Source of the DNA: a virus
Taxonomy: Duplodnaviria > Heunggongvirae > Uroviricota > Caudoviricetes
Length of the DNA: 46,337 nucleotides
IMG/VR virus record: IMGVR_UViG_2740892428_000001
Coordinates: 1-46,337 of that record
Strand: one strand, 5' to 3'
Within the stretch, counting starts at the first letter, position 1; each line of letters opens with the position of its first letter. Positions 26,638 through 27,134 of this stretch are shown here, piece after piece. A program made the translations under genes and the position numbers. The notes beneath the pieces are model-generated. The model did not search any database, was not told the DNA's origin, and was given only the letters and a program-made list of their open reading frames with translations.

Positions 26638-27134
26638 CTACATCTGATATTTTTTATCTCTTAAAGATTCATAAATCCGTTGACAAGTCACTCCTGCGAT
26701 GTAGCGTTTGTCAGCAATTTCAGCATAAAGCTGAGCTTCTGCTGCAATATCTCCGAGCATGTTGGTGAGCATTCCTTCGGCGGCTTTGGTTGTTTTGCCT
26801 CTGACGGCAGCGGCAAGATTTGCGGTATGCTGCGCTGCGTCAAGGCGTATGGCATATTTTGTTGCTTCGGCACGCAGCTGGTTAACACTATCAGACAGAT
26901 CAGCAGCCCTGGCAGAAATTTCAGCGGCTTTCTGTTGTGCATCTTTAACAGCCTCATCACGGGATATAGTTCGCCCCTGTTCAATTATTCGAGCAGCAAA
27001 TTGGACATTTACCTCTTGAGATAATTCGGCAGCATCACGCTCCGCCCATTTTTTTGCCATCCTCTGTCGCTCCAGACATTACCTACGACAAATCCTACCA
27101 ACACGAGCAAAATCACCGTGAATATCTGATTCAC
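26638..27134 (-). pseudogene. Rz: Rz-like i-spanin, apparently disrupted by a 1-nt frameshift in an A7 run
   Basis: N-terminal TM segment (V/M)[27 protein letters not shown] in one frame, starting with GTG overlapping the R stop; the periplasmic coiled-coil body (..[18 protein letters not shown].. to 26638) is in the +1 frame; the junction is the homopolymer at 27049-27055. Confidence 0.5.
26688..26957 (-). CDS. Rz1: Rz1-like o-spanin lipoprotein, embedded in Rz in the +1 frame
   Basis: Lipoprotein signal [23 protein letters not shown] with a lipobox-like LTSC followed by a Pro-rich mature part; fully inside the Rz coordinates; start could be either Met (26957 or 26942). Confidence 0.6.

Follow-up and report, generated by a model that had tools for sequence, protein, structure and literature searches.

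The lysis genes of the window (by which is meant the whole stretch of DNA analysed, 46,337 nt in length) form a cassette which, judging from similarity to known genes, is of the Qin/P21 type: an S21-type holin, a gene of the YdfR family, a SAR-type lysozyme and an embedded two-component spanin of the RzpQ/RzoQ kind (Table 1). Spanin gene Rz is broken in two by a run of seven A, the embedded Rz1 being intact. The cassette belongs to a lambda-like prophage of E. coli in which the genes for head, tail and lysis are present in full. Aligned with the prophage of NA3664 it shows 98.2% identity across 26 kb, and the annotated terminase, portal, capsid and tail genes of NA3664 are all complete; what the window contains is thus a lambda-like prophage of full length, as opposed to a remnant such as Qin. 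Over these 26 kb the sole frame-breaking indel is one missing A in Rz; the remaining gaps lie between genes, are compensated, or have a length divisible by three. Relative to the NA3664 prophage, the tape-measure gene carries a 15-bp in-frame deletion at position 11397.

Table 1. Lysis genes and associated features, in window coordinates.
Feature	Positions	Strand	Match or remark
Class II (S21-type) holin/pinholin, essQ/essD homologue, 71 aa, MKSM dual-start motif	28542-28757	-	Pfam PF04971, PHROG holin families
YdfR/DUF1327-family ORF, long form, 183-190 aa	27986-28558	-	phrog_2091
86-aa ORF overlapping the 3' end of the YdfR-family gene, opposite strand	27778-28038	+	phrog_2572 (E 1.2e-53); no Pfam match
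Endolysin, rrrQ homologue, 177 aa	27131-27664	-	Phage_lysozyme, phrog_7
Rz (rzpQ-type), N-terminal fragment, 41-aa ORF	27009-27134	-	GTG start; transmembrane segment
A7 homopolymer, site of the 1-bp deletion	27049-27055	-	exactly seven A on the coding strand
Rz C-terminal body, helical periplasmic domain, 140 aa from an internal ATG	26638-27060	-	DUF2514, phrog_312
O-spanin Rz1, rzoQ homologue, 84 aa, intact	26688-26942	-	+1 frame of the Rz body

The lysis cassette and its relatives

The identities which the earlier note had given to these genes from the letters of the sequence, namely an Rz-type i-spanin with an embedded Rz1 and a pinholin-endolysin pair, agree with the comparison with Pfam, PHROG and the homologues of K-12, the upstream holin being of the S21 type and the lysozyme apparently of the SAR type. 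The holin matches the Pfam family 'Bacteriophage P21 holin S' (E 7.3e-34), and its homologues carry the annotation essQ/essD; the endolysin matches Phage_lysozyme in Pfam (E 2.6e-24) and the endolysin family phrog_7 (E 1.4e-62). The N-terminus of the endolysin is weakly hydrophobic, with a Kyte-Doolittle 19-residue maximum (KD19) of 1.72 at residues 9-27, and, from its sequence and the similarity to the P21 type, this segment is consistent with a putative signal-anchor-release (SAR) domain. The long form of the YdfR/DUF1327 gene, located between holin and endolysin, is matched over its full length by phrog_2091 (E 3.7e-110); the K-12 form has 103 aa, and in NA3664 the long form is labelled 'incomplete' by the PGAP pipeline.

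Among the closest known systems is the Qin prophage of K-12, which shares with the window the gene order essQ-ydfR-rrrQ-rzpQ(rzoQ)-cspI-ynfQ-ynfR-ynfN-gnsB. In rzpQ of Qin an A tract is found at the same place, and the o-spanin gene is likewise embedded in the +1 frame; in Qin, however, the tract has eight A and the 165-aa rzpQ is intact, whereas in the window it has seven. The two loci differ also in that the YdfR-family gene of the window is longer and is accompanied by the 86-aa ORF on the opposite strand, and in that terminase, head and tail genes are all complete in the window prophage, Qin being a remnant. The cold-shock-type cargo around the cassette is arranged as in Qin, but in a prophage which here retains all head and tail genes: cspI-ymcF/ynfQ-ynfR-ynfN-gnsB sit between Rz and the small terminase gene (approximately 24000-26300), and cspB/cspF/ynfU are upstream of the holin (approximately 29000-30500).

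With the Rz/Rz1 pair of lambda the locus has in common the N-terminal transmembrane anchor, the helical periplasmic body and the embedded, +1-frame gene of a proline-rich lipoprotein, as well as the position of the spanin pair immediately downstream of the endolysin. The two differ in sequence family, the window Rz, once its frame is repaired, belonging to DUF2514 and matching the Rz family of lambda nowhere in the Pfam search; it has one periplasmic Cys (C151), against two in lambda; the mature o-spanin has 62 aa, against 40 in lambda; and the pair is associated with lysis proteins of a presumed pinholin/SAR-endolysin type, in contrast to the S105/R type of lambda.

The two frames of Rz and the embedded Rz1

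The TGA stop codon of the endolysin overlaps the GTG start codon of Rz at position 27134 (GTGA), as had been read earlier from the sequence. The 41-aa ORF which begins there has a KD19 maximum of 2.34 and a transmembrane segment at about residues 4-21; its residues 1-28 are identical to those of the intact RzpQ of NA3664, and after these come 13 residues out of frame and a stop codon. The 140-aa ORF, which overlaps it at the A7 run, lies in the -1 frame relative to it ((27134-27060) mod 3 = 2), and no hydrophobic segment is present in this body (KD19 maximum 0.61). No continuous frame thus connects anchor and periplasmic domain in the window, A7 putting the body in the -1 frame; the frames of the two ORFs and the count of exactly seven A bear out the earlier claim that anchor and body are split at this run. 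That a different in-frame start might give a complete Rz, which had been named as the outcome that would overturn this reading, was ruled out, the 140-aa ORF having no transmembrane segment; its internal ATG abuts the sole purine-rich stretch and has no ribosome-binding site at a proper distance, and the homologues all start at the GTG overlapping the endolysin stop.

Insertion of one A, which according to the earlier note would rejoin the two parts, does so: it yields a protein of 165 aa, whose identity is 100% to both WP_001071778.1 and the annotated RzpQ of NA3664, and 90% to the Qin protein of K-12, RzpQ (b1553). The lost A belongs to a conserved A8 tract at codons Gln27-Lys28-Lys29. In close relatives, which are annotated with an intact 165-aa rzpQ, one extra A is the sole difference from the window over 601 bp (602 versus 601 bases, 99.8% identity). 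In Pfam the repaired protein matches DUF2514 (residues 4-159, E 1.9e-38), and in PHROG it matches phrog_312, 'Rz-like spanin' (residues 7-162, E 3e-58); since both matches cross the frameshift, the split is not a chance pattern of open reading frames.

The repaired protein has, at about residues 4-22, the membrane anchor expected of an i-spanin (KD19 2.34), while the products as they are encoded in the window do not qualify, the 140-aa body being without a transmembrane domain. Periplasmic domains of i-spanins consist mostly of α-helices separated by a linker (PMC6139136), and the predicted fold of the repaired Rz matches this layout: the AlphaFold2 single-sequence model is all-helical, with helices at residues 4-21, 24-53, 59-110 and 117-163, and, its mean pLDDT being only 65, supports the secondary structure and the arrangement of an anchor followed by helices only.

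The embedded Rz1 is a complete ORF of 84 codons, 95% identical to K-12 RzoQ (b4689) and of the same length, so that the earlier description of it as intact stands. It matches phrog_11621, 'Rz-like spanin' (E 2.1e-08), and a GAGG is found 9 nt upstream of its ATG. Residues 20-23 form a lipobox, LTSC, in keeping with the o-spanin consensus [LVI][ASTVI][GAS]C (PMC6139136), and the mature part of 62 aa contains 9 Pro and 3 Cys; the protein has, therefore, the lipobox and the small proline-rich mature domain by which o-spanins are recognized. The gene lies wholly inside that of the i-spanin, in the +1 frame, and extends from 0.39 to 0.90 of its length L, which compares well with the limits typical of embedded spanins, from approximately 0.4-0.5 L to 0.9-1 L (Kongari et al., PMC6139136); the K-12 annotation likewise places rzoQ inside rzpQ. 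The exact Rz1 protein of the window was found on 115 contigs.

Length of the A tract in related genomes

The comparison of homologous prophages which had been asked for, A8 against A7, gave A8 in the overwhelming majority and A7 as a rare and recurrent form. RefSeq complete E. coli genomes were queried with a 66-nt sequence of the window type around the tract and, separately, with the K-12-type sequence: A7 occurs in 2 of 607 genomes with the window-type allele (the 23 matches listed below these two each show one extra base) and in 6 of the 1,502 with the K-12-type allele. The complete genomes in RefSeq thus amount to about 2,100 with A8 and eight with A7, that is A7 in approximately 0.4% of the complete E. 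coli genomes carrying rzpQ. A pattern scan permitting 7-9 bases at the tract found A8 in 58 of 60 metagenome contigs, the other two having A7 and A9, and in all of the 117 IMG/VR contigs, none of which had A7. In a collection of 15 billion proteins the contigs with the exact 165-aa product number at least 1,000, and those with the exact 140-aa product 159. The A9 tract, found in one metagenome contig (L051, VOFH01002794.1, positions 736-779), also breaks the Rz frame; since it represents the opposite slip, the tract varies in both directions.

Intact homologues in both rzpQ allele classes (the groups of 93% and 99% identity) carry A8, which makes A8 the ancestral state and A7 a derived one. 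The A7 form is seen with three kinds of allele, window-type, K-12-type and recombinant (UTME-7), in prophages with differing Q and terminase modules; it therefore arose, or was mis-called, on many occasions, and a single clonal origin of all A7 alleles is ruled out by these different allele backgrounds and prophage contexts. The same lesion from A8 to A7 is already known in RefSeq in the rzpQ genes of NCTC9008 (EL127_RS11525) and UTAK-1 (ABH549_RS13365), both of which PGAP annotates as 'frameshifted'; these copies, however, are K-12-type alleles in Qin-like loci, whereas the copy of the window is of the other allele class and lies in a full-length prophage, and the lesions are therefore independent events. 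The A8 tract, being conserved in both allele classes, appears as a recurrent break point of the gene.

The earlier note had left two explanations side by side, a real mutation or a homopolymer error, and these are indeed the two to be weighed. We consider it probable, from the sequences compared, that the window carries a real and recent 1-bp deletion, inherited in this prophage lineage, and we infer that sequencing error is not its cause. Over 12.4 kb the window matches GenBank CP195546.1 (L007) with 100% identity, and the same prophage, again with A7, is present in an ENA metagenome scaffold from a separate assembly (L005), whose short-read origin is deduced from the record name only; a single SNP in 12.4 kb sets this scaffold apart from the window. 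Homopolymers of at least 6 nt comparable between the window and the NA3664 prophage number 43, several of them 7-8 nt long, and all but one, the run in Rz, agree in length; the assembly of the window is therefore not a homopolymer-noisy one, and general noisiness was ruled out by the agreement of the other 42. The A7 of the separate scaffold, together with the unchanged length of every other run, makes a real deletion likelier than an assembly error, and a recent origin is supported by the run length being the only difference from the A8 relatives over 601 bp.

The same isolated difference is what an error would also produce, if the strain truly had A8 and an intact Rz and an under-call of the homopolymer had survived polishing. 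An 8-nt homopolymer is a classic site of residual long-read error, and the scatter of A7 over unrelated backgrounds at 0.3-1.7% is a pattern that random errors would give as well; moreover, some of the A7 assemblies (L012, L008 and wlxctx60) are noisy and contain numerous additional indels or disrupted genes, the alignment of L012 to the window opening 28 gaps and the Rz gene of wlxctx60 being broken at other points as well. Several GenBank genomes carrying matches are absent from the RefSeq complete-genome hits, and this too was counted against a real deletion. Against an error stand, besides the L005 scaffold and the 42 concordant runs, the occurrences of the exact 140-aa product, whose 159 contigs come from NCBI, ENA and Logan run assemblies; on balance we regard an error as unlikely, and a real, inherited deletion as the preferred reading.

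Proposed consequences of the lesion

If the deletion is real, replication slippage most probably removed one A from the conserved tract. Translation from the normal GTG start would then give the membrane anchor and 13 wrong residues only, while the periplasmic body, without anchor or export signal, would be unable to reach the periplasm even if it were translated; the RzoQ-like o-spanin would still be made from its own start, but without its partner in the inner membrane. Upon induction the host would be killed and its wall degraded, leaving spherical cells with an intact outer membrane and a poor release of phage. In lambda, nonsense mutations throughout the periplasmic domain of Rz are lysis-defective (PMC5295617), and by extrapolation from this genetics the A7 allele is predicted to produce a spanin-null lysis defect. 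A spanin could be supplied in trans by other resident lambdoid prophages, and slippage of polymerase or ribosome on A7 could also give full-length Rz at a low level. A search of the literature for 'rzpQ' found nothing on its function or on this lesion.

Slippage of this kind is the basis of a different explanation, that the split gene is recoded, A7 yielding some full-length Rz, or that A8 and A7 act as a phase switch of phage release. The shift needed is of -1, on A_AAA_AAU (C-AAA-AAA-U), an A-rich sequence superficially resembling a slippery site; A8 has been conserved in both allele classes although AAG codons could break it; and variants with A7, A8 and A9 are all present in nature. More than 99% of the homologues, however, are in-frame A8, and the split form is therefore not a conserved recoding arrangement; folding of the sequence that follows the run gave no stable structure beyond chance (MFE -16.6 kcal/mol; z = -0.05 relative to shuffled sequences); and the NCBI pipeline calls the same lesion a frameshifted pseudogene. 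Efficient slippage of E. coli RNA polymerase needs runs of nine or more, so that A7 falls below this length, and AAU in the A site is ill suited to -1 slippage. As to a switch, the loss of the spanin does not rescue the induced cell, and hence it brings no obvious benefit to the host. Recoding or switching is thus very improbable, and a programmed -1 frameshift or transcriptional slippage was rejected, the split form not being conserved and a stimulatory downstream structure being absent. Even more doubtful is the stronger proposal of a contingency locus, in which reversible slippage among A8, A7 and A9 would toggle the spanin and the leak from A7 would give a trickle of Rz; were it true, the tract would modulate whether induced cells burst or persist as intact spheres.

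The feature is a routine homopolymer-frameshift pseudogene of a known prophage gene, equivalents of which are already annotated publicly; the annotation suggested is rzpQ as a frameshifted pseudogene and rzoQ as intact, and beyond annotation the lesion has little meaning. If real, it implies that an otherwise complete prophage would release phage poorly on induction, which bears on the scoring of such a prophage as "intact" or on attempts to propagate it. The recurrent breakage at this tract is a small example of how the lysis genes of prophages begin to decay.

Two further disruptions were seen in the lysis cassettes of A7-bearing sequences. In one of the other genomes with A7 an IS21-family element (istA/istB) is inserted between a truncated lysozyme gene and the Rz gene (L009:3268-5634), and this insertion is an independent route of disruption of the same cassette. 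The single difference of the ENA scaffold from the window (L005:5397-5624 was compared) is a change of CAG to TAG, at window position 27439, which converts Gln76 of the endolysin to a stop codon; the sister copy thus has, besides the shared A7, another damaged lysis gene, which suggests an ongoing decay of the cassette.
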